Shown here: positions 5,627 to 47,184 of the stretch, one piece after another
Position numbering within the stretch: position 1 is the stretch's first letter
Layout: each line of letters starts with the position of its first letter
Source: Candidatus Woesearchaeota archaeon
Lineage (GTDB): Archaea; Nanobdellota; Nanobdellia; Pacearchaeales; GW2011-AR1
DNA length: 50,819 bases
Assembly (NCBI GenBank): GCA_964603295.1
Contig: CAZRUG010000005.1
Span: 1 to 50,819, forward strand
Reading direction: 5' to 3'
Translations under genes and position numbers: made by a program
Notes under the pieces: generated by a model
The model's input: the letters and a program-made list of their open reading frames with translations, nothing else
Told to the model about the DNA's origin: nothing
The model's database searches: none

Positions 5627-5656
5627 AAAAACCTAAAGAATAAGTCTTTTATAAAT

Positions 5657-5847
5657 TTATTGCCTATCTTTATCATCAGAATTAGAGAGCAAACCTTCTA
5701 ATTTAGTCTGAGAATATGCAGTCATAAAAATTCCAGCTCCACTTAAAATAAAATCATATAAAGAAACTTCTCTCGAAAATACTGATACCCCGTATGCAGT
5801 TAAAGTAGCTCCTAAAAGCCATGTTGTTTGATAAAAATCTTTTCCAT
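5657..5847 (-). pseudogene. Small (~64 aa) membrane-protein gene interrupted by a frameshift, or carrying a homopolymer miscall
   Basis: The ATG at 5845-5847 has CTTTAAAT 20-27 nt upstream. That frame (MEKIFIKQHGF*) stops after 11 codons. The -1 frame continues as WLLGATLTAYGVSVFSREVSLYDFILSGAGIFMTAYSQTKLEGLLSNSDDKDRQ*. One extra T in the T5 run would join the two frames. Confidence 0.3.
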
Positions 5848-5908
5848 AAGGTTTCTATTTCTTTCCATTTAAAGCCGATTTAAAGACAATATTTAAAACT
5901 TTCCACAA

Positions 5909-9325: not shown

Positions 9326-10552
9326 TTAAACTAATCTCTCAAGAGCTTTTTTTCCAGTCCAGACACAAGCTGAAGGACATTTAATTCCTTGCAAACACTT
9401 TGGCTTCAAAGCATTCTCACCATATTTATCTTGAAAAGCCCCATACTCTTGAGAAGTCTTTTTTGTTTGATCCATAATTTCCCATTGAGCATGACCACAA
9501 TTTCTTAACAATGTCTTAGAACGAAAATCTTCAATCATACCTCTTTCAGTAACATTGATTAATTGAGCTTGAGGAAAATCATAGGCTGTAACAGATTCAA
9601 CATCTTTCATCCATTCACTAACCAAATAATCCTTGCCCTCCAAAATAGGTGGAACAAAAAGACCTTTGTCAGCACCTAATTCAAGACCACCATTAATATT
9701 ATAGTTAATTGTTCTATGCCTATGCTCTTGAGCTAAACCAGCAAAACTTATGTCATAATCAGTAGAATAAACACTTTCACCAAAATGATTCTCTGAAACA
9801 GCTGGCTGAAACAAAGACAAATGCCGATCTGTTTGATTATCCATTCCTTCAACTTTTAAACCAGAAACCATTCTATTAAATAATTCCATATATGGAATTA
9901 ATCTTTGCGCAAATTCATTAGAGCAATTTCTCTCTTCAGAACCTTCAGCAAAACCCTTAAATCTATTCATTAAAAAATTCAATTGCCTCCAATTAACAGT
10001 ATGAACCATTTTTGTAGCAGTAAAAACACTTGTCATATAACGAGCATTTTCTTGAGCTAATTTCTTAATATTTGCTTCTCTTGCATTTGAATCTCTCATT
10101 TCAGGATAAACCCTATCAATTTCAGGGATTAAAAGACCCATCCATTTATCATAAAGTTCTTTTTGATGTTCCTCAACATCACTCATTTGAGTATACCTTG
10201 CAGATTTTTCAGAAGTTGCATATTGCTTTTCATTATTAAAGACCATTGCCAAAATCTTAGGCAAACCCCTAAAATTAAAATTAAAATTAATATGTTCAAA
10301 AACACTATGGTGTCCAGAATTAATTAATCTCTCTAAAAGTTTCTGATTCGGTGCTTCAGTTAAAAGCTCATTAAAATCTTTTTCAGTATAACAAACTCTT
10401 GCGCAATTTTGAGAAAACTTTTGCATTTCATGAATTATTCTATCTCTATCTAGAGAATCTTCAACAGAAGCTTCAATATCTTTTAAAGAAACATCCACAA
10501 AATTATTTGTAGAACCAATCAGCTGAACATCAAATCCATCTTTATTTAACAT
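9326..10552 (-). CDS. thyX: Flavin-dependent thymidylate synthase ThyX-like, double-domain (pseudo-dimeric) form
   Basis: The N-terminal half has GHHSVFEHINFNF, SEKSARY and HTVNWRQLNFLMNRF. The C-terminal half has YDISFAGLAQEHRHRTINYN and LLRNCGHAQWEI. I compared these from memory with T. maritima ThyX motifs (GHETPFEH, RHRIASYNELSGRY, TVNARSLMNFLNLR, SHAQWEI). Confidence 0.6.
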   Translation of the reverse strand: MLNKDGFDVQLIGSTNNFVDVSLKDIEASVEDSLDRDRIIHEMQKFSQNCARVCYTEKDFNELLTEAPNQKLLERLINSGHHSVFEHINFNFNFRGLPKILAMVFNNEKQYATSEKSARYTQMSDVEEHQKELYDKWMGLLIPEIDRVYPEMRDSNAREANIKKLAQENARYMTSVFTATKMVHTVNWRQLNFLMNRFKGFAEGSEERNCSNEFAQRLIPYMELFNRMVSGLKVEGMDNQTDRHLSLFQPAVSENHFGESVYSTDYDISFAGLAQEHRHRTINYNINGGLELGADKGLFVPPILEGKDYLVSEWMKDVESVTAYDFPQAQLINVTERGMIEDFRSKTLLRNCGHAQWEIMDQTKKTSQEYGAFQDKYGENALKPKCLQGIKCPSACVWTGKKALERLV

Positions 10553-10718
10553 AAATTAATTCAAATCAAAACTCTTTATAAAAACTATTGCACTCAAAAA
10601 TATATATTAAAATTATTTAATCTTTCGTTATTCATGTTTCTATTATGGTTAGGATATAATAAAGACTTTAATCTTTCATATTCGAGTGTCTGCGACTACG
10701 AGAATACCATAAAAGACA

Positions 10719-13298: not shown

Positions 13299-15089
13299 AT
13301 GGATTTAGAAGAAAAATACAAAATTAATTTTAAGTATAACATTAATGAATACTGGAAGTTACTAAAAAAACACAAAAAAACATTTACTCTACTTATCTTT
13401 ATCACATTATTCATGAATGCTTTAGCAATAGTTGATAAATTCTTATTTAAAAGAATTATTGATGACGGAGCATTATTTTTAGATGGAAGTCTTGCACAAA
13501 ATATTTTTATTCAAACACTAACAATAATTGCAATAATCTACCTAAGTGTCTCAGTTGGCAGAACTATTTTTAGATGGTTATATATTCATTTTATAAATGT
13601 ATTAGATGCAAAACTAATCTTAGATTTAAAAACACACTATTTTTCACATATAATAAAACTCTCGCAAAAATTCCACACAACACACAAAACAGGTTCTCTA
13701 ATCTCACGATTAGGAAGAGGTTCAAACGCAGTAGAAACAATGACAGATGCAATAATCTTTCATTTCACACCACTACTATTTAATTTAATTATTGTTGGAT
13801 TTTCTTTAGCTTATTTTAGTATAAAAACAGCAATTGTTGTTGTAATAATGTCAATAATTTTCATTTCATATAGTTGGAAAATCCAGCAAAAGCAACAAAA
13901 ATATAAAATACAATTTAATGCTGCAACAGATACAGAAAAAGCTTATGTAGCAGATATTTTCACAAACATAGATACAATAAAATATTTTGGAAAAGAAAAA
14001 TTAATTGACAAAAAATACAAAGCACTTTCCACAGACACAAATAACAAATTCCTAATTTACAATGGATTTTATCGTTGGTTTGATGCAGGACAATTATTTA
14101 TTATTGGTGTGAGTTTATTTTTCCTAATCTACTTTCCATTACAACAATTTTTAGCAGGGGAAATGACAATTGGTACTTTAACATTTATCTATACAGCATA
14201 TAGTCAAATAACAATGCCTTTATTTGGATTTGTTTGGGGATTAAGAAGCTTTTACAGAGCAATGGCTGATTTCCAAGATTTATTTGAATATGGAAAAATT
14301 GAAAATGATATTAAAGACAAAAAAAATGCTGAACAGATAAAAATTCAAAAAGGCGGAATAGAATTCAAAAATGTATCATTTAATTATGGAAAAAGAAAGG
14401 CATTTAGTTTAAAGAATTTTAATCTAAAAATAAAACCAAATGAAAAAGTAGCTTTTGTGGGACATTCTGGTTGTGGAAAAACAACATTAGTAAAACTTCT
14501 ATATAGATTATATGATGTTCAAAAAGGAGATATAAAAATAGATAATAAAAAGATAACCGAAGTTAAACAAGAATCATTAAGAAGTGAAATGAGTATTGTT
14601 CCACAAGAAGCAATTTTATTTGATGATACAATCTATAATAATGTAAAATTTGCAAATCCTTCTGCAACAAAAAAAGAAGTTATGCAAGCAATAAAATATG
14701 CTCAACTTGATAAAGTGATTAATAAACTTTCTCAAAAAGAAAAAACAATTGTGGGTGAAAGAGGAGTCAAACTTTCAGGAGGGGAAAAACAAAGAGTTTC
14801 AATTGCTCGAGCAATTTTAGCAAACAAAAAAATATTAATCTTAGATGAAGCAACCTCTGCATTAGATTCAGAAACAGAACACGCAATTCAAGAAGCACTT
14901 CAATATTTATTAAAAGGAAGAACATCAATAATAATTGCGCATAGACTTTCAACAATTATGAATGCAAACAGAATCATTGTTATGAAAAATGGTGAAATCA
15001 TTGAGCAAGGAACACACAATGCACTAATCAGAAAGAATGGAGAATATAAAAAGCTCTGGAAGATGCAAAAAGGTGGTTATATAAAATAA
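13299..15089 (+). CDS. ABC exporter, fused permease and ATPase (ABCB/MsbA-like)
   Basis: It has a six-TM N-terminal domain, Walker A GHSGCGKTT, signature LSGGEKQR and Walker B ILILDEATSALD. Confidence 0.9.
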   Translation: MDLEEKYKINFKYNINEYWKLLKKHKKTFTLLIFITLFMNALAIVDKFLFKRIIDDGALFLDGSLAQNIFIQTLTIIAIIYLSVSVGRTIFRWLYIHFINVLDAKLILDLKTHYFSHIIKLSQKFHTTHKTGSLISRLGRGSNAVETMTDAIIFHFTPLLFNLIIVGFSLAYFSIKTAIVVVIMSIIFISYSWKIQQKQQKYKIQFNAATDTEKAYVADIFTNIDTIKYFGKEKLIDKKYKALSTDTNNKFLIYNGFYRWFDAGQLFIIGVSLFFLIYFPLQQFLAGEMTIGTLTFIYTAYSQITMPLFGFVWGLRSFYRAMADFQDLFEYGKIENDIKDKKNAEQIKIQKGGIEFKNVSFNYGKRKAFSLKNFNLKIKPNEKVAFVGHSGCGKTTLVKLLYRLYDVQKGDIKIDNKKITEVKQESLRSEMSIVPQEAILFDDTIYNNVKFANPSATKKEVMQAIKYAQLDKVINKLSQKEKTIVGERGVKLSGGEKQRVSIARAILANKKILILDEATSALDSETEHAIQEALQYLLKGRTSIIIAHRLSTIMNANRIIVMKNGEIIEQGTHNALIRKNGEYKKLWKMQKGGYIK

Positions 15090-15755
15090 TTATTCTTCTT
15101 CAGGTTCATCTTCTAAACCAAACAAGTAAAAAATAAAATCAAAGAATCTTAATAAAAATTCTAAGATTAAAATAAATAAAAGATACTGAAATGCATGAAC
15201 AAAATAAGAAGGTAGTTCAGCCAATCTTCCAATAAAAACACTAAAAAAGTTTTCATTAAAAAAACTTGGTGTTAAAATTGCAGAAGTTAAAAGCATTAAA
15301 GGAAAAATCTTTGCAACATCTTGAGATAATTTTTCTCCATAACCAGGAAGATAAGCAATCATTCTAATTGCAGCGATAATTGCAGCAGACACCAAAAGAA
15401 TTGTATTTAAATCCACAATATTCTCTATTAATGCAATTAAGAAAAAAGTTAATACAATAAACCATAAGAAAATTAAAAATGGTGAAATAAGCAAATATTC
15501 AAAAAAATACAAAATACCTGCAAACAATTTTTCAAAAAAGACATTTTCAGATTTATTATATTGTTTGAGATTTAGATCAAGAACATTCTTTTTTGAAATA
15601 AAAGTATAAAACTTCCATACAAAAATAGAATAAATAACAATCAATAAAACCAAAACAAAAAGATTAACAAAATTTTGCGCCCAAGGAGGGATAAATGATA
15701 CTAATGAATTATATATCCCAATCAAAGAACTTGTAATACTTGACATCACCTCCAT
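15090..15755 (-). CDS. Polytopic membrane protein, unknown function
   Basis: From the ORF track. It has multiple hydrophobic helices and an acidic C-terminal tail. TTTAAAAA lies 22-29 nt upstream of the ATG. Confidence 0.6.
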   Translation of the reverse strand: MEVMSSITSSLIGIYNSLVSFIPPWAQNFVNLFVLVLLIVIYSIFVWKFYTFISKKNVLDLNLKQYNKSENVFFEKLFAGILYFFEYLLISPFLIFLWFIVLTFFLIALIENIVDLNTILLVSAAIIAAIRMIAYLPGYGEKLSQDVAKIFPLMLLTSAILTPSFFNENFFSVFIGRLAELPSYFVHAFQYLLFILILEFLLRFFDFIFYLFGLEDEPEEE

Positions 15756-15790
15756 ATAATTAATAAAAATCTCTTGTTTTTAAACATTTT

Positions 15791-15806
15791 CAAAAAGTTT
15801 AAATAG
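15791..15806 (+). promoter_or_regulatory. BRE/TATA-like promoter for the Ser-rich mini-ORF
   Basis: In CAAAAAGTTTAAATAG, the TTTAAATA octamer lies at -29..-22 from the ATG at 15827. The same octamer sits at the same distance before serS. Confidence 0.45.
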
Positions 15807-15826
15807 TTTAAAACATTAAAAAAATA

Positions 15827-15877
15827 ATGAAAACTAGATTAACTTTAATTTCAGCAAGTTCTTCTAGTTCCAACTAA
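15827..15877 (+). CDS. Candidate 16-codon Ser-rich mini-ORF (MKTRLTLISASSSSSN) upstream of serS
   Basis: I translated this by hand. Six of the 16 codons are Ser, and five are consecutive. The promoter sits at canonical leaderless spacing. The ORF is too short to score as coding. Confidence 0.3.
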   Translation: MKTRLTLISASSSSSN

Positions 15878-15878
15878 A

Positions 15879-15899
15879 TCAAAACTCTAAGAGTTTTGA
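15879..15899. promoter_or_regulatory. Perfect 21-bp palindrome TCAAAACTCTAAGAGTTTTGA (hairpin or operator)
   Basis: I verified it base by base. It starts 2 nt after the mini-ORF stop. A T-run follows at 15910-15913. Confidence 0.6.
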
Positions 15900-15914
15900 G
15901 ACAGAATTCTTTTA

Positions 15915-15925
15915 ACTCTAAGAGT
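15915..15925. promoter_or_regulatory. Second copy of the 11-bp palindromic core ACTCTAAGAGT, abutting the serS promoter
   Basis: The core is identical to that of the first palindrome. The two centres are 31 bp apart. Confidence 0.5.
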
Positions 15926-15940
15926 AAACTTTAAATAAAA
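15924..15940 (+). promoter_or_regulatory. serS BRE/TATA-like promoter
   Basis: In GTAAACTTTAAATAAAA, the TTTAAATA octamer lies at -29..-22 from the ATG at 15959. Confidence 0.5.
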
Positions 15941-15958
15941 CAAAATACAAAAAATAAA

Positions 15959-17251
15959 ATGATTGACATTCAATTAATCAGAGATAATCCTAACCTTGTA
16001 AAGGAAAATATGAAAAAGAAATTTAGAAAAGATTTACATCTTGTTGATGATTTAATAAAGCTCGACGAAAAATGGAAAAAAATCAAGTATGAAGAAGAGC
16101 AATTAAGAAAAGAAAGAAATAAAGTTTCTAAAGAAATTAGTGAAGCAAAAAAATCAAAGGACGAAAAAAAAGCTAAAAAATTAATGAAAGATGCAAAAGA
16201 AATTCCTAAAAAAATTGATGAATTAAATGAAAAAAGAAAAAAACTTGAACAAGAAATTTTTAACACACAAGCAAAAATTCCAAATATAATGTCTAAAAGA
16301 GTTCCAATTGGAGAAGATGATTCTAAAAATGTTGATGAAAAACATATTGGGGAACCAAAAGAATTGGGATTTGATCCAAAAAGTCATGTAGAAATTATTG
16401 AGAATTTAGGTCTAGCAGATTTTGATTCTTCAGCAAGAGTCTCTGGAAATGGATTCTATTATATAGAGGGTGATTTAGCACTTATGCAATCAGCATTGAT
16501 AAATTTTGCAAGGGACTTAATGATCTCAAAAGGATTTAATTATGTTGAAACACCTTATTTACTAAGAGAAGAAATTATTGATAAAGTTACTGACTTAAAT
16601 GATAAAGAAAACCAAATCTATGTTGTTGAAGATTCTCCAAAAATGGCTTTAATTGGAACATCAGAACATTCTTTAATTAGTCGTTATGCAGGGCAAGAAA
16701 TTGATGAAAAGAAATTACCAATTAAACAAACAAGTTACTCAATGTGTTTTAGAAAAGAAATCGGGGCCCATGGAATTGATGAAAAAGGTTTATTTAGAAC
16801 ACACCAATTTAATAAAATTGAAATGGTTGTTATTTGTAAACCAGATATAAAAGAATCAGAAAAATTTTATCGAGAAATGCAAGACATAACTTTAGAAATT
16901 TTTGAAAAAATAGAAATTCCAGCAAGAGTATTAACAATATGTTCAGGAGATTTAGGTGATCTAAAATATGAACAAATAGATGTTGAAGCATGGTCTCCAA
17001 GAAGAAAAGATTATTTTGAAGTTGGTTCATGCTCTAACCTAACAACATCTCAGGCAAGAAAATTAGGGATCTCTACAAGAATAAAAAATGAAAGGGTAAT
17101 TCCACACACATTAAATAACACAGCCATTGCAACCTCACGAGCCCTAGTAGCAATTATTGAAAATAACCAAACAAAAGAAGGAACAATAAAAATACCAAAA
17201 GCTCTTCAACCATATATGCTTGGAAAAAAAGAAATCAAACCAAAAAAATGA
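15959..17251 (+). CDS. serS: Seryl-tRNA synthetase
   Basis: An N-terminal coiled-coil arm precedes a class II core (FRKEIGAHG, FRTHQFNKIEM, GSCSNLTTSQARK, LNNTAIATSRALVAIIENNQ). Confidence 0.95.
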   Translation: MIDIQLIRDNPNLVKENMKKKFRKDLHLVDDLIKLDEKWKKIKYEEEQLRKERNKVSKEISEAKKSKDEKKAKKLMKDAKEIPKKIDELNEKRKKLEQEIFNTQAKIPNIMSKRVPIGEDDSKNVDEKHIGEPKELGFDPKSHVEIIENLGLADFDSSARVSGNGFYYIEGDLALMQSALINFARDLMISKGFNYVETPYLLREEIIDKVTDLNDKENQIYVVEDSPKMALIGTSEHSLISRYAGQEIDEKKLPIKQTSYSMCFRKEIGAHGIDEKGLFRTHQFNKIEMVVICKPDIKESEKFYREMQDITLEIFEKIEIPARVLTICSGDLGDLKYEQIDVEAWSPRRKDYFEVGSCSNLTTSQARKLGISTRIKNERVIPHTLNNTAIATSRALVAIIENNQTKEGTIKIPKALQPYMLGKKEIKPKK

Positions 17252-20533: not shown

Positions 20534-20692
20534 TTAGAGTTCTTTTAATTTTGTTAATGCTTCTTCAACATTTCCATTATGGACTAAGAAAAAGTGTAGG
20601 TTTTTATTCATTGATTCCCAAATCTTTCCAATTTCTTCTTTATATTGTGTGTCTTCATTGCTTACTCTATCTTCTCCTTTCCATTCTTTCAT
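20534..20692 (-). CDS. Possible small soluble protein, or a frameshifted C-terminal continuation of 20667-20873
   Basis: The internal Met of the 74-aa ORF overlaps the end of the upstream ORF by 26 nt. I see no recognisable domain. Confidence 0.25.
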   Translation of the reverse strand: MKEWKGEDRVSNEDTQYKEEIGKIWESMNKNLHFFLVHNGNVEEALTKLKEL

Positions 20693-20873
20693 CAACAATC
20701 CTCTCTTTCTTTGAAATAAACTGAATTGATATAATTGCAAAAATAACAAACCCAACATAAATCATCCAAGAACCAACTGATTCAAATCCCAAAAAATCAC
20801 TTCCAATTCCAAGATAATTAAAAACAATTCCTGCTACAAGCAAAATAAATGCAAAACTATATCGCCATGCCAT
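20667..20873 (-). CDS. Small 2-TM membrane protein with a C-terminal DER motif
   Basis: From the ORF track. It has two hydrophobic helices followed by KKERIVDERMERRR. It lies downstream of the XRE regulator. Confidence 0.5.
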   Translation of the reverse strand: MAWRYSFAFILLVAGIVFNYLGIGSDFLGFESVGSWMIYVGFVIFAIISIQFISKKERIVDERMERRR

Positions 20874-20900
20874 TTTGCTTTTTTGTAAACATTTTTTTAT

Positions 20901-21095
20901 TCATTTTAATTTAAATACATCTTCTATTTTCTTTTGTTTAAGTGCTTTTGTAATTTTATATGCCAACTCAAGAGAAGGATTGTATCTTCCTTGCTCCAAT
21001 GCATTAATTGTCTGTCTTGTAACTTCTACAGCCTGTGCCAACTCTTCTTGAGTAATTCCCAATTTCCTTCGATAAAAATTTATTTTTGTTTTCAT
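20901..21095 (-). CDS. XRE-family helix-turn-helix transcriptional regulator (64 aa)
   Basis: [37 protein letters not shown] is a canonical HTH_3 sequence. Confidence 0.85.
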
Positions 21096-21103
21096 TTATC
21101 ATT

Positions 21104-21532
21104 TTAATCCTTTCTATCTAAATAAATATTTGTGATTGCTTTAACAATAACTCCGAAAAAAAGTGCTAAAACAATAAACCAATCAACTTTAAGTGAATTA
21201 TTCAAAGCACTTGTTATAACCTGATATAAAATACCTAATACTAACACAAACATCATTGCCCAAAGCGCATTTCTTTCAGCAAAAGCCTCGTGAATTCTCT
21301 CTCTTTCATCTTGCTTCATTCTTGCCATTGCACTAAAAATATCAATACCTAAAAAAGCAATCCAAACTCCAGTAACAATTAATCTTAATTCAGTAGACCA
21401 ATAAGGCAATGCCTGAAACACAATAAAGGGCAACATTACTGCAACCAAATAAACAATGCCCCTCCAGTCTTTTGGATGAACTCCCCATCCTCCATACTTT
21501 CTTCTCTTAAACCATTCAGGATGAGCAATCAT
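21104..21532 (-). CDS. 4-TM membrane protein with a DERERIHE loop motif, partner of the XRE regulator
   Basis: From the ORF track. It is tightly linked, lying 8 nt upstream of the HTH gene. Confidence 0.65.
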   Translation of the reverse strand: MIAHPEWFKRRKYGGWGVHPKDWRGIVYLVAVMLPFIVFQALPYWSTELRLIVTGVWIAFLGIDIFSAMARMKQDERERIHEAFAERNALWAMMFVLVLGILYQVITSALNNSLKVDWFIVLALFFGVIVKAITNIYLDRKD

Positions 21533-21705
21533 TTCTTTCCTTCCCTAACAGGTATAAAATAAATAAACCAGAGAACCCACACAAACCAAACAAGCATTAT
21601 TTTATTGTCAGTAACAATTCCATTGATTCCCAATAAAGCAAAAAACCCAAAAAAACCCATTTGCCAATTTTCTCTCATTTTTGTTTTAGTATTTTTATTT
21701 GTCAT
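21529..21705 (-). CDS. Small 58-aa membrane protein (not in the ORF track)
   Basis: Hand translation gives MTNKNTKTKMRENWQMGFFGFFALLGINGIVTDNKIMLVWFVWVLWFIYFIPVREGKK. It has an ATGA overlap with the next gene. A TATA-like TATTTAAATA lies about 23-32 nt upstream. Confidence 0.5.
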   Translation of the reverse strand: MTNKNTKTKMRENWQMGFFGFFALLGINGIVTDNKIMLVWFVWVLWFIYFIPVREGKK

Positions 21706-25744: not shown

Positions 25745-27181
25745 ATGCAAAAAGAGGAAAAGAAATTTAAAACCTTATTTAATGAATCTCTTACAAGTAT
25801 GATTCTAATAGATAAAAAAGGAAAAGTTCTTGCAATCAATAAACCTGCACTAAAAATAAACAAAACACTAAAAAATTCTAATATAAAAGAACACTATCCT
25901 TTTAGAGATAAAAAAATACAAAAATATGTTTTAAATTCAAAAAAACAATGTAAAGAATTTGATTTAAAAGATAGAACATTTTTAATTAAGAAAATTCCTT
26001 TAGAAAAAAATATCATTCTTAACCTTGAAGTAAAGAAAAACACTTCTGAAAAATTATTTGAAACTCTTGCAGAAGATTCACCAAGTGCAGTTTTTATTGG
26101 AAAAGAAGGAAAAATACTTTATGCAAATGCAAAATGTGAAGAGATAACTGGTTACAAGAAAAAAGATTTTTACTCAGCCAAATTTAGTTTTTTATCAATG
26201 GTTGATGAAGATTCACTTGATCAAGCAGAAGCACAACTAATGCCAATTGATTCAAGAAAAAAATTAGAAATTACTCCCTCAACAACCCCCTATGAATATG
26301 GATTAATCACAAAACAGGGTGAAAAAAAATGGATTTTAATGTCAACAAGAATAATCCAGTATGATAATGAAACCGCAGTCTTAGGAATTTTAACAGATAT
26401 TACAGATAGGAAAAAAATAGAGGAAAAAATAAAAAAAGCAAATGAAGAATTAAAAAATGTTGATAAAATAAAAAACGAATTAATGAATGTTGTTGCACAT
26501 GAACTCAAAACTCCTTTAGCCCCAATACTTGGTTACACAGATATGATTCTCAAAGACAAAACATGCAAATTAGGAAAAGAACATAAAGAAGAAGTAAAAA
26601 TAATTCAAAGAAACGCAAAGCGATTAGAACTATTAGTTAAAGATGTTTTAGATGTTTCAAAAATTGAAACAGGTGCAATGAAATTCCAAAAGCAAAAAAT
26701 AAATATTTCAAAGTTAGTTAAAGATGTTGTAAAAGGAATGCATCCCAAGGCAAAAAAACAAAATATAAAACTAATTTCAAAAATAAAAAAAACAGATAAC
26801 ACAGTTGCAGACCCTTATCGACTAACACAAGTTGTTTCTAATTTAATAGACAATGCATTAAAATTTACAAAAAAAGGCTCAATCAAAGCAATTGTTTCTC
26901 AAAATAAAAAACAAATAAGGGTTGAAGTAAAAGATACTGGTTCAGGAATAAAAAAACAAGATATATCTAAATTATTTAAAAAATTTTCACAATTAAATTA
27001 TGATCCTGAAAGAAAATCAAAAGGAACTGGTTTAGGCTTAGCAGTTTCAAAAGGAATCATTGAAGGTCATAAGGGAAAAATATGGGCAGAAAGTGAATTT
27101 GGCAAAGGCAGTTCATTTATTTTTACTATTCCAATAAAAAAGAAAGGTTTAAATAAAAAAGTATCTTCTAAAAAATCATGA
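25745..27181 (+). CDS. Cytoplasmic PAS-domain sensor histidine kinase
   Basis: It has the H-box VVAHELKTPL, the N-box NLIDNALKF, and the G-boxes DTGSGI and GTGLGLAVSKGIIEGHKGKIW. PAS-like repeats lie upstream. There are no TM helices. Confidence 0.9.
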   Translation: MQKEEKKFKTLFNESLTSMILIDKKGKVLAINKPALKINKTLKNSNIKEHYPFRDKKIQKYVLNSKKQCKEFDLKDRTFLIKKIPLEKNIILNLEVKKNTSEKLFETLAEDSPSAVFIGKEGKILYANAKCEEITGYKKKDFYSAKFSFLSMVDEDSLDQAEAQLMPIDSRKKLEITPSTTPYEYGLITKQGEKKWILMSTRIIQYDNETAVLGILTDITDRKKIEEKIKKANEELKNVDKIKNELMNVVAHELKTPLAPILGYTDMILKDKTCKLGKEHKEEVKIIQRNAKRLELLVKDVLDVSKIETGAMKFQKQKINISKLVKDVVKGMHPKAKKQNIKLISKIKKTDNTVADPYRLTQVVSNLIDNALKFTKKGSIKAIVSQNKKQIRVEVKDTGSGIKKQDISKLFKKFSQLNYDPERKSKGTGLGLAVSKGIIEGHKGKIWAESEFGKGSSFIFTIPIKKKGLNKKVSSKKS

Positions 27182-27537
27182 AAAAGAATGTGCTTGTAAT
27201 TGACGATGAAAAAGATTTTGCAAATCTTCTTAAAAAACAGTTAGAAAAAGAAGATTATAATGTTAAAGTCCAAAACACAGGCCAAAAAGGACTTGATTAT
27301 GCAAAAAAAAATAAACCAGATATAATTTTATTAGATATTATGATGCCAAAAATGTCTGGATGGGAAGTCTGCAGTAAACTTAAAGACGACGAAGATACAA
27401 AAAATATTCCAGTAATATTCTTAACAGCAAGGACAGACGATGTATCAAGATCAATGGGTATGAAAGGTGCAGATGAATATATTGAAAAACCAGTTGATCC
27501 AATTGACTTATTTAAGAAAATAAAAAAACTAACATAA
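27178..27537 (+). CDS. Single-domain CheY-like response regulator
   Basis: It contains VLVIDDE, DIILLDIMMPKMSGWEV and PVIFLTA. It overlaps the kinase stop by 4 nt. Confidence 0.9.
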   Translation: MKKNVLVIDDEKDFANLLKKQLEKEDYNVKVQNTGQKGLDYAKKNKPDIILLDIMMPKMSGWEVCSKLKDDEDTKNIPVIFLTARTDDVSRSMGMKGADEYIEKPVDPIDLFKKIKKLT

Positions 27538-41875: not shown

Positions 41876-41905
41876 TAAAAATTCAGAAAGAATTATTTTA
41901 TAAAA

Positions 41906-41938
41906 TTAACGCACAACATCAGCTTGTTTTTCTGCTTT
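41906..41938 (-). pseudogene. rps7: Duplicated remnant of the rps7 3' end (encodes KAEKQADVVR-stop)
   Basis: 26 of 33 nt are identical to 42121-42153, including the 16-nt core CATCAGCTTGTTTTTC. It is in frame and keeps the stop codon. The upstream frame is closed by TGA after 5 more codons. Confidence 0.6.
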
Positions 41939-42103
41939 ATGCGAGCGACTGTGTCAGCGAGTATCCGCAGATTTATCGAGGACTTTCAAAATTTTATATT
42001 TTGATTTATGCGAGCGACTCATTAAAATGACATTGTCGATTTTGATGAATGAGAAGTTTACTTCGCTTTGTGTCAGCGAGTATCCGCAGATTTATCGAGG
42101 ACT
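41936..42103. repeat. GC-rich direct-repeat block: a 15-nt repeat x2 and a 35-nt repeat x2
   Basis: TTTATGCGAGCGACT occurs at 41936-41950 and 42005-42019. TGTGTCAGCGAGTATCCGCAGATTTATCGAGGACT occurs at 41950-41984 and 42069-42103. An AT hairpin (TCAAAAT-TTTAT-ATTTTGA) lies at 41986-42004. Confidence 0.85.
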
Positions 42104-42120
42104 ATAGGCGGAAAACAGGC

Positions 42121-43692: not shown

Positions 43693-46600
43693 TTATTTAT
43701 TTGTCTTCTCAACAGTTTTTGATTCAGCTGTTTTTTTCTGTGAATCTGGTTTTGTCAATGGACCTACAACTTGCACAGCTAATCCAGGAAGACCAGTGCC
43801 AACAGGAACAGGTTGATTCAAAATAATATTTTCAATAACACTTGCTAATTTATCTTTACTTCCTTTAATTGAAGCATTAATAAATTGTTTGTCTGGTATC
43901 TCAAAAGTTGCTCTTGCTAAAATCGAAGACTTTTGTGCAATAATACCCATACGAGTAACACCTTTAACATCACCAGTATTTGTCATTGCATCTGCAGCTA
44001 ACTTCAAGTGTCTCTTATCAATTGTAATCCCCTGGCCACCAATTGTTTCTTGAATTTCATTAATAATTAATTGACGAGCAGCTTCAACACCAAAAATCTT
44101 TGAAACTTCATGTAAATCATTAGACAATAATTTATCTGGATTAACTTCTTCATAACCAAGCATTTTCTTTAAGTTAGTTCCAAGAGTAATAATTACATAA
44201 TCCTTATCTCTCTTTACAACCAAAACTTGTTTAATTCCTTTTACACCAGAAATAATTGTTGCTTTTAATTTTTCCTTAAGTTTATACATTTCCTTAAATT
44301 CAAATTTACTTGCATCAAGAATAATTGTGTCACCCTTCTCTTCTAAATCAAACCCGGCTTTATTTAATCTTTGAACAACTTTCTTTAATGTAACTTGTAA
44401 TCTCTTTAATGCAGATTTATCAATTCTAATTTCAATAGATTTTTCACCAAAGTCTAAATTAATTTCAGAAGAAATTTCTTTAAGAGTTACTTCCTTAATT
44501 CTTTCAGCAAGAGATCTTGCACCTTCTTCTGTATTAAATTCTTTTTTCAAATAAATCTCCATCTTAGGTGAAGAAGGATTTTTACGAGCATCAAAGATTT
44601 CAATCATCCTCGGTAAACCAGTTGTAACCTGCATTTCAGCAACACCTGCCATATGAAAAGTTCTCATAACCATCTGTGTTGAAGGTTCACCAAAAGACTG
44701 AGCAGTTACTAATCCAATTGCTTCACCCGGTTGAACTTTTTCTTTTTTATGAAGAGTTGTAACATCAATTGCATCATCTCCATAAATAAACTGAATAATA
44801 TTATTATTACTATCTCTAACTGTTCCGTCGTATTCAACACGCATATCTTGAATTGCATTTGATAATCTTCTATACAAGTAACCTGATTTTGGAGTTCTAA
44901 GAGCTGTATCCATTAATGAATCTCTACCAGTAATAGCACCAAAGAAAAACTCATCTGGCCTCAAACCTTTAATAAATGAACTCTTAATAAAACCTCTTGC
45001 TTCCATAGATAAATCTTCTTTTTCAAAAAAAGACAAAGTTCTGTTAACATAACCAAAGTCAATTCTTTTACCACTTAACTGCTGCTGACCAACAGTATTT
45101 GCCATCTGAGTAATATTCAAAATCTTACCTCCACCTCCAGATTTCATCATAAAATTCAACTGATTAGTTTCAGGGAACTCTTTTTTAACAATTGAACCAA
45201 TCTTAGTTCTAACATCATTTAAAACTTGAAGAATTCTAATTTCTCTTGACTCAGCCATATCTTTTCCAGGAAGTAATTCAATTGTTCCATCTTCAAATGA
45301 TTGAATAATCTCATCAACTTTCTTTCTTGCATTTTCAATAACATCATTACCTTTTTTAATAACAGCATCGTCTAAATCAAAATCTTCAACTGATAAAGAC
45401 AATCCATGAGTATCAAGATAACTTCGACCAATACTAAAAGCATCTTGAATTGTTTTAAATACAGTATATCTATCAAACTTTTTATCAAGTTCTTTAATCA
45501 ATTGACCTCCTTCATCTCCAAATACAGTTTTATCAATAATTCCTTCTTTAATTTTTCCCCCTTTAATTTCTAAAGAATCATTCTTAAAATCAATATCTGG
45601 AAGAATTTCTGAAAATACTTCATTACCTGAAACAGTTTTCTTTGAAAAATTAGAAATCACATTACAAGAAGAATAAAGTAATTGTTGTGCTTCAGATTTA
45701 TCAAAATCATTTGTTCCAACAAGATAATCTCCTGTAACAGCATCCTTAATACATCCAATAAAATTTGTATTATTTTTAGGAGAAATTAAATTTGATTTAA
45801 CATCTAATAAAATCTTTGCTTCAGCTCTTGCTTCTTCTGTTTGAGGGGAATGAATATTCATCTCATCACCGTCGTAATCACCAGCATAAGGCATTAACAC
45901 AGATGGGTGAACTCTAAAAGTTCTTCCAGGGAAAACCTTTACGAAGTGGGACATTAAACTTCCTTTATGCAATGATGGATGACGATTAAACAATACAACA
46001 TCTCCATCCTGCAAATGTCTTTCAACTTTATAACCTGAAACAAGCTCTGCAATAATTTCTTCTTTTAATTCTTCTGTAATTTTCTTTCTCTTTCCATCAG
46101 GCCTAATAACATAATTAGCACCAGGATATTCAGAACCTTTTTCAACAAGTTTTTTTAATTTTTCAATATTCAAATCATTCACTGTTTCTGCAACAGTAAC
46201 AATCTTTGCAATTTCATAAGGAACCCCAATTTCATTAATTGCCATATAACAATCCGGAGAAATAACAGTACGTGCAGAATAATTAACACGCTTACCAGCC
46301 AAGTTCTTTCTGATTCTACCTTCTTTGCCTTTAATTCTTTCAGTAATTGTTTTCAAAGGCTGACCACTTCTATGTCTTGCAGGAGGAATTCTTGCAACTG
46401 AATTATCAAAAAAGGTTGTAACATGAAATTGTAATAAATCCCATAAATCTTCAATAATAACTTCGGGTGCACCAGCATTTAAATTCTCCCAAAGTCTTTG
46501 ATTAGCTCTAATAATATCTGATAACTTATGAGTTAAATCATCTTCTGATCTTTCACCAGATTCTAAAATAATTGAAGGCCTAACAGTTACAGGCGGAACT

Positions 46601-47184
46601 AACAACGATGTTAAAATTGCCCACTCAGGACGACAAGTTCTTGCATTAACTCCAATCTTTTTTAATTCTTCATCCGGAATTTTAACTAAAATTTCTCGAA
46701 TATCAATTGGGAAAAGTCTTTTTCTTCCAATATAAAAACTAGTTGGTTTATCTAACTTAACTTTTTCATTTGCAACACCACAATGCGGACATTTTGCCTT
46801 GTCTTTTGCTTTTTTAGCTCTTTCATTTGGAGAATATTTTTCTAAGTATTTATCTTCAAGCATTAATTTTCCACAATCTCTACAAAAACATCTTAATCCT
46901 AATTCAACTAAGGGAATATATTTCAAATGCATAAGTGGTCTTGCTAATTCAATATGTCCTGGGTGACCTAAACATTCTTTAATTCTCCCCCCACAAGTCC
47001 GACATCTAACACCTGGATCAACAGCACCCATTCTTAAATCCATTAAACCACCGTCGACAGGATAACCATCCATATCATAAAGTTCAGGTGTAACTATCTT
47101 TGCAGCTGAAATTGATTTAATCTGTTCTGGATTAAATAGGGAAAATCTTAACTTTCCAACTTTTTTACTAATTGCTTTATTCAT
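43693..47184 (-). CDS. rpoA: DNA-directed RNA polymerase subunit A, with A' and A'' encoded as one 1163-aa polypeptide
   Basis: The zinc-binding N-terminus, the YAGDYDGDEMN active site, the bridge helix (GAITGRDSLMDTALRTPKSGYLYRRL) and the A''-type trigger loop (PGEAIGLVTAQSFGEPSTQMVMRTFHMAGV) all lie in one uninterrupted frame. Confidence 0.95.
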   Translation of the reverse strand: MNKAISKKVGKLRFSLFNPEQIKSISAAKIVTPELYDMDGYPVDGGLMDLRMGAVDPGVRCRTCGGRIKECLGHPGHIELARPLMHLKYIPLVELGLRCFCRDCGKLMLEDKYLEKYSPNERAKKAKDKAKCPHCGVANEKVKLDKPTSFYIGRKRLFPIDIREILVKIPDEELKKIGVNARTCRPEWAILTSLLVPPVTVRPSIILESGERSEDDLTHKLSDIIRANQRLWENLNAGAPEVIIEDLWDLLQFHVTTFFDNSVARIPPARHRSGQPLKTITERIKGKEGRIRKNLAGKRVNYSARTVISPDCYMAINEIGVPYEIAKIVTVAETVNDLNIEKLKKLVEKGSEYPGANYVIRPDGKRKKITEELKEEIIAELVSGYKVERHLQDGDVVLFNRHPSLHKGSLMSHFVKVFPGRTFRVHPSVLMPYAGDYDGDEMNIHSPQTEEARAEAKILLDVKSNLISPKNNTNFIGCIKDAVTGDYLVGTNDFDKSEAQQLLYSSCNVISNFSKKTVSGNEVFSEILPDIDFKNDSLEIKGGKIKEGIIDKTVFGDEGGQLIKELDKKFDRYTVFKTIQDAFSIGRSYLDTHGLSLSVEDFDLDDAVIKKGNDVIENARKKVDEIIQSFEDGTIELLPGKDMAESREIRILQVLNDVRTKIGSIVKKEFPETNQLNFMMKSGGGGKILNITQMANTVGQQQLSGKRIDFGYVNRTLSFFEKEDLSMEARGFIKSSFIKGLRPDEFFFGAITGRDSLMDTALRTPKSGYLYRRLSNAIQDMRVEYDGTVRDSNNNIIQFIYGDDAIDVTTLHKKEKVQPGEAIGLVTAQSFGEPSTQMVMRTFHMAGVAEMQVTTGLPRMIEIFDARKNPSSPKMEIYLKKEFNTEEGARSLAERIKEVTLKEISSEINLDFGEKSIEIRIDKSALKRLQVTLKKVVQRLNKAGFDLEEKGDTIILDASKFEFKEMYKLKEKLKATIISGVKGIKQVLVVKRDKDYVIITLGTNLKKMLGYEEVNPDKLLSNDLHEVSKIFGVEAARQLIINEIQETIGGQGITIDKRHLKLAADAMTNTGDVKGVTRMGIIAQKSSILARATFEIPDKQFINASIKGSKDKLASVIENIILNQPVPVGTGLPGLAVQVVGPLTKPDSQKKTAESKTVEKTNK

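Follow-up and report, generated by a model that had tools for sequence, protein, structure and literature searches.

A lineage-specific segment at the serS start codon of a DPANN archaeon follows an inherited leaderless start and contributes a serine-rich mini-ORF and a pair of candidate operator palindromes

The stretch of DNA analysed here, called the window throughout (50,819 nucleotides, or 50.8 kb), is chromosomal DNA of a DPANN archaeon with a GC content of about 29%. A Pfam scan of its 48 ORFs characterises it as a housekeeping segment encoding RNA polymerase subunits, the ribosomal proteins S12, S7 and S10, EF-2, EF-1alpha and the seryl-tRNA synthetase SerRS, whose gene, serS, is the only aminoacyl-tRNA synthetase (aaRS) gene present. 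The closest relatives of this SerRS are found in Pacearchaeota, Woesearchaeota and Nanoarchaeota, placing the window in DPANN, and the protein is 45-49% identical to the enzymes of Firmicutes. The genome is compact, with spacers elsewhere mostly 60-170 nt long. The region comprising serS and a divergent membrane-protein gene contains the following features:

15090-15755, minus strand: divergent membrane-protein gene, about 220-221 aa, syntenic beside serS in many relatives
15777-15784, minus strand: TATA box TTTAAAAA of the membrane-protein gene, at -29..-22 of its ATG
15798-15805, plus strand: P1 TATA box TTTAAATA, in the ancestral serS promoter position, at -29..-22 of the mini-ORF ATG
15827-15877, plus strand: mini-ORF MKTRLTLISASSSSSN of 16 codons plus stop, with ATG at 15827 and TAA at 15875-15877, read directly from the sequence
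15831-15925, plus strand: core of the insert, 95 nt with 28% GC, the flanking promoter segments having 9-11% GC; no detectable homologue
15832-15869, plus strand: hairpin H1, located within the mini-ORF and pairing its arms 15832-15845 and 15856-15869 at 12 of 14 positions, -9.5 kcal/mol, z = -3.1
15879-15899, no strand: perfect 21-bp palindrome containing the 13-bp site A, AACTC-TAA-GAGTT (15883-15895; 13/13 positions palindromic)
15893-15913, plus strand: two T4 tracts within 21 nt (15893-15896 and 15910-15913), a possible archaeal U-tract-type terminator signal for P1 transcripts
15914-15926, no strand: site B, AACTC-TAA-GAGTA, 12/13 positions palindromic, ending 3 bp before the P2 TATA box, over the BRE position
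15930-15937, plus strand: P2 TATA box TTTAAATA, predicted leaderless promoter of serS, at -29..-22 of the serS ATG
15959-17251, plus strand: serS, seryl-tRNA synthetase, 430 aa, with Pfam domains Seryl_tRNA_N and tRNA-synt_2b

The TATA-to-ATG distance that an earlier note on this DNA had described before many genes is a general property of the window: the octamer [TC]TT[AT][AT]A[AT]A begins exactly at -29 from the ATG at 17 of the 48 gene starts, and a TATA-like octamer lies 1-2 nt off this position in another four. GGAGG-like Shine-Dalgarno sequences precede about 10 of the 48 genes, eight of which have no TATA box, and this distribution, taken together with the -29 boxes, indicates that the first genes of transcription units are leaderless. 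By raw count TTTAAATA is not enriched in the window (15 seen vs 19 expected); the promoter signal is positional. A box at -30..-28 is found before 31 ATGs, of which 21 are gene starts and four are intergenic orphans, the mini-ORF being one of the latter; other orphan units of this kind, with TATA at -29 and an ATG, are located at 5868 and 21705, both on the minus strand.

The two identical boxes P1 and P2 each lie at -29..-22 from their own ATG, as previously described. Box P2 has a counterpart at the identical distance before serS in the relatives, and no Shine-Dalgarno sequence was found upstream of serS. With this canonical leaderless promoter and start of its own, 34 nt downstream of the palindromes, serS is probably transcribed from P2 as its orthologues are from the equivalent box. 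A transcript reading through from P1 would also offer serS no Shine-Dalgarno sequence for its translation.

The mini-ORF controlled by P1 agrees in its coordinates and composition with the earlier description: six of its 16 residues are Ser, five of them consecutive, and the Ser codons are, in order, TCA, AGT, TCT, TCT, AGT and TCC. Its ATG is in frame with that of serS at a distance of 132 nt (44 codons), with two stop codons intervening.

Comparison with related genomes reveals the origin of this start. The start codons of the membrane gene and the mini-ORF are separated by 71 nt, and the corresponding spacer between the membrane gene and serS measures 71 nt in the related locus L164 and 72 nt in L081. 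The MAFFT alignment of the window with L164 is free of gaps from the divergent TATA box through TTTAAATA to the ATG, and the similarity ends directly 3' of this codon. The P1 TATA box is collinear with the serS TATA boxes of L164, L081, L162 and L165, the divergent TATA box being likewise aligned in relatives, and the ATG(A) of the mini-ORF is the counterpart of the ancestral serS start codon. Compared in register over -60..-34, P1 is identical at 18/27 positions and P2 at 11/27, and a 14-mer, AAACATTTTCAAAA, is common to the window and L162. The collinearity of both TATA and ATG with those of serS in the relatives implies that the start of the mini-ORF descends from that of serS. A direct repeat of 37 nt with 73% identity, covering both promoter cores and the ATGA 132 nt apart, was also considered as proof of a duplication and rejected: at 27/37 it is the highest value among the 153 promoter pairs compared, and barely exceeds the other, unrelated pairs, which reach 26/37.

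In the relatives, the membrane gene and serS are typically separated by 71-83 bp (L164, L081/L198, L162, L163, L165 and L003), with a single serS TATA box at -29; by eye, the spacer of L004, L007 and L008 is likewise short, at roughly 80-95 bp. The additional 132 bp, located at the serS start codon, is specific to the lineage studied here. Conservation at related serS loci had been proposed earlier as a check, and the outcome was negative: neither the Ser run nor the palindromes occur at any of the approximately 35 archaeal loci examined (SerRS identity 47-76%). Searches with SerRS for closer relatives gave best matches of 74% in genome contigs and of 78%, over a partial match, in metagenome contigs, none carrying the insert; among 5.8 billion proteins the best match was 76%, and the insert is not shared there either. 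An identical-protein look-up returned no record. The feature itself is real and is carried by a single genome, and the synteny on both sides of the insert argues, from the sequence, against a chimeric assembly.

Searches with the insert itself gave a consistent result. Its 21-mer palindrome has no match in 596 Gb of genomes, while a pattern of two cores separated by a variable gap has six, all bacterial and unrelated. A blastn-short comparison of the insert with the rest of the window and with all fetched loci revealed nothing significant, and no homology was found to the inserted gene of L199 or to the long spacer of L200. Matches of a 17-mer in viral contigs were judged coincidental, the contigs being unrelated and mostly GC-rich; in one jumbo-phage contig the 17-mer is a multi-copy intergenic motif. 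Several identities for the insert were rejected. It is not a tandem duplicate of the 5' end of serS, the in-register identity of 15831-15925 with 15963-16057 being 24%, below the shuffle mean. Terminal inverted repeats and target-site duplications of the MITE or IS type were not seen by eye with either set of boundaries, and no tRNA, split tRNA or known RNA family was detected. Rfam gave no match at gathering score across the window, and only noise in 15700-16000 at E-values up to 10.

The same spacer has been altered repeatedly in other genomes. In L199 it contains an inserted gene of 98 aa, driven by the upstream promoter, with the serS TATA box retained; in L200 it is a non-coding spacer of 268 nt; duplications of 45, 23 and 22 nt are present in L006, L161 and L001, respectively; and L002 and L003 differ by an indel of 32 nt. 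Judged from these sequences, this spacer is a hotspot of insertion within the clade. Taken together, it is very probable that P1 and its ATG were inherited from serS, that the 132 bp was inserted at an indel hotspot in this lineage only, and that serS now uses P2.

The most conspicuous elements of the insert are its palindromes. The perfect 21-bp palindrome reported earlier (10+1+10) was recovered at its described position, and a second core, ACTCTAAGAGT, does lie at 15915-15925, the exact repeat being one nucleotide longer than the 11 originally given: a 12-mer, AACTCTAAGAGT, occupies 15883-15894 and 15914-15925. The core centres at 15889 and 15920 are 31 bp apart, equivalent to three helical turns, as stated before. 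In an information-weighted test, a repeat of this quality was equalled in one of 2000 dinucleotide-preserving shuffles of the spacer, while the plain length test gave 63 of 1000, a figure inflated by A-runs. The sequences flanking the two 12-mers agree at no more than 2 of 19 positions and are thus unrelated, so that the pair is not a 31-nt tandem duplication. The palindrome taken alone is unexceptional, as perfect palindromes with a stem of at least 10 occur twice in the window vs about 1.5 times expected.

Both sites have the format of archaeal Lrp/FFRP-type binding sites, namely 13-bp (semi-)palindromes of the form 5-3-5 with an A/T centre. Archaeal Lrp regulators bind as dimers to 13-bp palindromic sites, which cluster at centre-to-centre distances of two or three helical turns (PMC2995911), and the SELEX optima of these regulators likewise have a 5/6-3-5/6 format (PMC2715240). 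The position of site B agrees with this layout, since it ends at 15926 and the P2 TATA box begins at 15930; the activators Ptr2, LysM and Ss-LrpB have a dimer site within a few bp of the BRE (PMC2995911). Several observations speak against an operator. The motif is conserved in no relative; the extension to a 21-bp palindrome is confined to site A and better suits an RNA hairpin; and the centre triplet is TAA vs the AAT/ATT preferred by characterised FFRPs (PMC2715240). No other promoter within the 50-kb window carries the motif, all other sites with 0-1 mismatches being inside genes. A Pfam search of the 48 window ORFs found no Lrp/AsnC domain in any of them, and no regulator gene could be identified among them near serS, the sole HTH protein being a 64-aa XRE-type one located 5 kb away. 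Operators of a dimeric regulator, with the mini-ORF as a chance ORF or decayed gene start, had been offered earlier as the alternative interpretation; the collinear TATA and ATG and the Lrp-like site layout now favour it, the palindromes standing as candidate sites of unproven function.

The inserted sequence is also predicted to form structured RNA. The run of Ser codons is the 3' arm of hairpin H1, a 14-nt inverted repeat, and an RNA spanning 15827-15913 (87 nt) folds into H1 and hairpin A with -18.8 kcal/mol (z = -3.0). RNA folding bears out the suggestion that the half-sites pair both within a copy and between copies: hairpin A alone has -8.8 kcal/mol, the inter-copy structure at 15884-15925 has -15.8 kcal/mol (z = -3.3), and in a transcript reaching 15925 the inter-copy structure displaces hairpin A. 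The Ser codons pair inside the ORF in all folds, and the structure at 15884-15925 forms independently of them.

The T-run noted earlier is present as TTTT at 15910-15913, and an additional TTTT is located at 15893-15896, within the 3' arm of the palindrome. In Methanococcus, hairpin-free U4 tracts define terminators together with aCPSF1, two tracts giving high efficiency (PMC8716108). Of all 24-nt windows on the plus strand, just 2.9% contain at least two T4 tracts, and 2-4 tracts are present at many ends of transcription units in the window. The two tracts could therefore terminate P1 transcripts, a weak call given the abundance of T4 in such AT-rich DNA. A bacterial-type terminator was considered and rejected, since the only pattern match is on the minus strand at the palindrome, where no gene ends; on the plus strand no hairpin followed by a U-run precedes serS.

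The Ser run itself is rare. Five runs of at least five Ser occur in the six-frame translation of the 50.8 kb, the other four being antisense to genes. The possibility that such mini-ORFs are common by chance, which would have made this one trivial, was not borne out: among the 356 mini-ORFs of 10-30 codons in the window, this is the only one in which more than two Ser are consecutive, and a Ser run in one given ORF has a chance of roughly 1 in 1000. The window holds no other aaRS gene at which cognate-rich mini-ORFs could be compared. Two Ser-containing ORFs at other loci were judged to be due to chance: a 20-codon ORF with six scattered Ser beside the palindromic TATA of the divergent gene in L001, and an MSSSSS ORF without a promoter upstream of serS in L025.

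From the Ser run the earlier note had inferred a control of read-through into serS by sensing of Ser-tRNA. The analysis gives no support to this proposal, as the pairing partners of the Ser codons are codons 2-7 of their own ORF, and it is further weakened by the lack of a hairpin and U-run before serS, the presence of the P2 promoter and the absence of a Shine-Dalgarno sequence. Among the hallmarks of a leader-peptide attenuator, the codon cluster is present, while overlapping alternative structures, an apparent dependence of gene expression on read-through and conservation are missing. The rarity of the Ser run prevents the attenuator idea from being wholly dismissed, and we consider it unlikely.

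The following scheme accounts best for these data. A segment of about 132 bp probably entered the compact bidirectional promoter at the serS start codon, so that the original serS promoter P1 and ATG would now provide the start of a 16-codon ORF whose sequence comes from the insert, and serS would be transcribed leaderless from the proximal P2, as in its orthologues. Transcripts from P1 would most likely stop at the U4 tracts in 15893-15913, before P2, giving a short RNA of approximately 70-90 nt that plays no part in serS expression. The part of the insert likeliest to be functional is the identical pair of 13-bp (5-3-5) palindromes, of which the proximal one adjoins the BRE/TATA of P2. We infer protein binding here, and a direction of regulation, in that a dimeric regulator with an Lrp/FFRP-like site layout would occupy the palindromes and control P2; once bound, it could, as a side effect, block elongation from P1, and possible roadblocks of this kind to upstream transcription are described for archaeal Lrp regulators (PMC2995911). 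The Ser run would be incidental, as the 3' arm of a hairpin with a composition that resembles the antisense strand of Glu/Leu/Lys-rich coding DNA. Hairpin H1 and this composition explain the run only partly, and its rarity is left as a coincidence. The joint proposal of a regulator-binding module at P2, formed by the palindrome pair, and of a short terminated transcript from P1 is put forward tentatively.

A rather unlikely, though still substantial, alternative is that the 132 bp is a neutral relic of insertion, gene decay or repair at the indel-prone spacer, with P1, the mini-ORF, the hairpins and the palindromes unselected and serS using P2. The lineage-specific character of the segment, the failure of the searches to find a homologue, and the independent insertions and duplications in the same spacer of L199, L200, L006, L161, L001 and L002 are all consistent with this origin, as are the near-background similarity of P1 and P2 and the expected frequency of 10-bp-stem palindromes. 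The 12-mer pair with unrelated flanks is improbable by chance, however, and its phasing at three helical turns, with one copy abutting the BRE, speaks against a relic, as does the perfect consensus TATA kept at P1; a genome as compact as this one would be expected to lose useless DNA.

It is improbable that P1 belongs to an independent small gene, producing a small RNA of about 70-90 nt with two hairpins and a U-rich tail, or a 16-aa peptide, unrelated to serS. The consensus promoter, the stable fold of the 87-nt RNA, the terminal U4 tracts and a GC content matching coding or structured sequence rather than spacer agree with such a gene; the two other orphan promoter-ATG units of the window provide parallels, and L199 shows that a gene can be inserted at exactly this site. 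Against it stand the absence of any Rfam match even at E-values up to 10 and of any homologue in 596 Gb (21-mer) or at any fetched locus, and it leaves the second identical palindrome against P2 unexplained.

A similarly low probability is assigned to a Ser-sensing leaderless leader peptide, in which stalling at the five Ser codons would alter the fate of P1 transcripts and hence the output of serS. Stalling could act through an altered hairpin A or inter-copy structure, changing the access of a termination factor to the U tracts, or through uncoupling of the ribosome from RNA polymerase, and serS would change via read-through or via relief of transcriptional interference at P2. This reading draws on the fact that SSSSS uses both Ser codon boxes (AGY and UCN) in a run unique among the 356 mini-ORFs, directly 5' of the cognate synthetase gene, the only aaRS gene of the window; that the ORF begins exactly at the predicted leaderless start position; that the downstream RNA has two mutually exclusive folds; and that leaderless Cys-rich uORFs exist in mycobacteria (PMC4633059). 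It conflicts with the absence of the element from every orthologous locus examined and with the pairing of the Ser codons upstream, inside the ORF, instead of with the downstream segment. The promoter and ATG are explained by ancestry rather than by design, no hairpin-then-U-run or sequestered start signal lies before serS, and serS possesses a separate promoter and lacks a Shine-Dalgarno sequence; in the open-access literature no archaeal precedent for leader-peptide control was found. Stalling that promotes termination also has the wrong sign for simple read-through, so that an extra interference step is needed, and the version in which stalled ribosomes uncouple, hairpin A stays open and the U4 tracts are exposed to aCPSF1/FttA, P1 transcription thus stopping before it occludes P2 and serS rising when seryl-tRNA is scarce, is very improbable.

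If the palindromes are operators, as in the preferred reading, they would represent a rare dedicated transcriptional control of a synthetase gene in a reduced DPANN genome, acquired by an insertion that rewired a leaderless promoter. To our knowledge, translation-coupled amino-acid sensing has not been demonstrated in Archaea so far; if the Ser sensor were true, such sensing would exist there, and the locus would be the first leader-peptide-type control of an aaRS in this domain, built from a leaderless start, U-tract termination and promoter interference. What the locus mainly illustrates is that an insertion at the start codon in a leaderless genome automatically creates a promoter-supported mini-ORF, and secondly that the spacer between the membrane gene and serS behaves as an insertion hotspot.

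Among known systems, the T-box riboswitch of Firmicutes is a cis element before serS that senses the charging of tRNA-Ser. The segment described here shares with it the cis-acting position before a bacterial-type serS and differs in having no Rfam match, in being far too short and in lacking a specifier loop and a T-box sequence. The leader-peptide attenuators of bacteria, such as trpL, hisL and pheM-pheST, are similar in that a short ORF with tandem cognate codons lies 5' of the gene and is followed by structured RNA. In the archaeal locus, however, the regulatory codons do not fall in a segment with a downstream pairing partner, an intrinsic terminator before serS is lacking, serS is served by a promoter of its own, the host has leaderless mRNAs and U-tract/aCPSF1 termination, and the element is not conserved.

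The closest true analogue of an attenuator at this locus is provided by the leaderless Cys-rich uORFs of mycobacteria, which likewise place a leaderless ORF with clustered relevant codons at the 5' end of the transcript (PMC4633059). The mycobacterial uORFs are conserved and occupied by ribosomes, with the downstream cysteine genes on the same transcript (PMC4633059), whereas here nothing is conserved and serS is under a separate promoter. The aCPSF1/FttA U-tract terminators (PMC8716108) resemble the 3' part of the insert in having two U4 tracts within about 21-23 nt, 3' of the stop codon, with no hairpin required; the differences are that one of the tracts lies within a hairpin arm and that T4 is frequent in this AT-rich genome.

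The palindrome pair, as a candidate operator, is best compared with the archaeal Lrp/FFRP sites, such as those of Ptr2 at fdxA/rb2, of LysM at lysW and of Ss-LrpB. It differs from them in that no Lrp-like gene is present in the window, the centre is TAA, and the motif occurs at no other promoter of the window and in no relative. It shares with them the 13-bp palindromes with 5-nt arms and an A/T triplet, and the arrangement of two sites on one face of the helix, 31 bp apart, with the proximal one a few bp from the BRE/TATA. Regulators of the Lrp/FFRP family are commonly amino-acid sensing (PMC2995911, PMC2715240), a property that would suit the control of a synthetase gene.

The spacer between the 221-aa membrane gene and serS, the seryl-tRNA synthetase gene, is an insertion hotspot. 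The Pacearchaeota relative L001 carries an insert of about 170 nt 5' of serS (2795-2965), which is GC-richer and structured, with a folding energy of -48.4 kcal/mol (z = -2.85) and no significant match in Rfam. A 20-codon ORF adjoins this insert, and its six Ser residues are scattered. Two other relatives contain short tandem duplications located immediately 5' of the TATA box of serS, or spanning it: in L161 (948-993) the repeated unit is 23 nt long, and in L006 (2902-2967) it measures 45 nt and bears a degenerate second TATA.

Independent enlargement of the same spacer was observed in the relatives L199 (891-1187) and L200 (933-1200). The former contains a 98-aa gene, driven by the upstream promoter, with no Pfam match; the latter comprises a non-coding stretch of 268 nt. 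An ABC transporter gene (13299-15089) separates the Na+/H+ exchanger from the membrane gene in the window, the two are directly adjoining in L162 and L164, and an extra small ORF lies between them in L165.

The 17-mer AAAACTCTAAGAGTTTT, matching the perfect 21-bp palindrome of the window (15879-15899), occurs in many copies in the 197-kb phage contig IMGVR_UViG_3300037042_004723 (about 60% GC; L189, L190, L193 and other loci), every one of them as a gGAAAACTCTAAGAGTTTTCc-like intergenic site. It is present also in a second large phage contig. This 17-mer is likely to be a regulatory motif of phages, and that it matches the window palindrome is probably a coincidence. Within the window, the half-site AAGAGTTTTGA of the palindrome recurs at 10566-10576, immediately past the TATA box of a thyX-like gene (9326-10552, minus strand), a weak match with an E-value of about 0.06-0.9.

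Another spacer, 41876-42120, has an unusually high GC content (36% vs. 12-29% in other spacers). It contains a perfect 35-nt direct repeat, TGTGTCAGCGAGTATCCGCAGATTTATCGAGGACT, with copies at 41950-41984 and 42069-42103, and a 21-nt unit present three times; neither an Rfam match nor a convincing ORF was found in it. An orphan promoter unit at position 5868 (minus strand), consisting of a TATA box at -29 and an ATG that starts the 18-codon ORF MERNRNLMEKIFIKQHGF, is located in a 282-nt spacer with 29% GC (5627-5908).

Three small genes below an 80-aa cut-off lie in the region 20667-21705 (minus strand):

20667-20873, minus strand, membrane protein of 68 aa
20901-21095, minus strand, XRE-type HTH protein of 64 aa
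21529-21705, minus strand, DUF3796-like protein of 58 aa

These genes are similar to the HTH_3 and DUF2178 pair found 3' of serS in L164.

The window also encodes a PAS histidine kinase (478 aa) overlapping a receiver-only response regulator of 119 aa (25745-27537). Reduced DPANN genomes do not commonly have two-component signalling. Subunits A' and A'' of archaeal RNA polymerase are usually split; the presence of Rpb1 domains 1 to 5 in a single 1163-aa ORF (43693-47184, minus strand) suggests that they are fused here.
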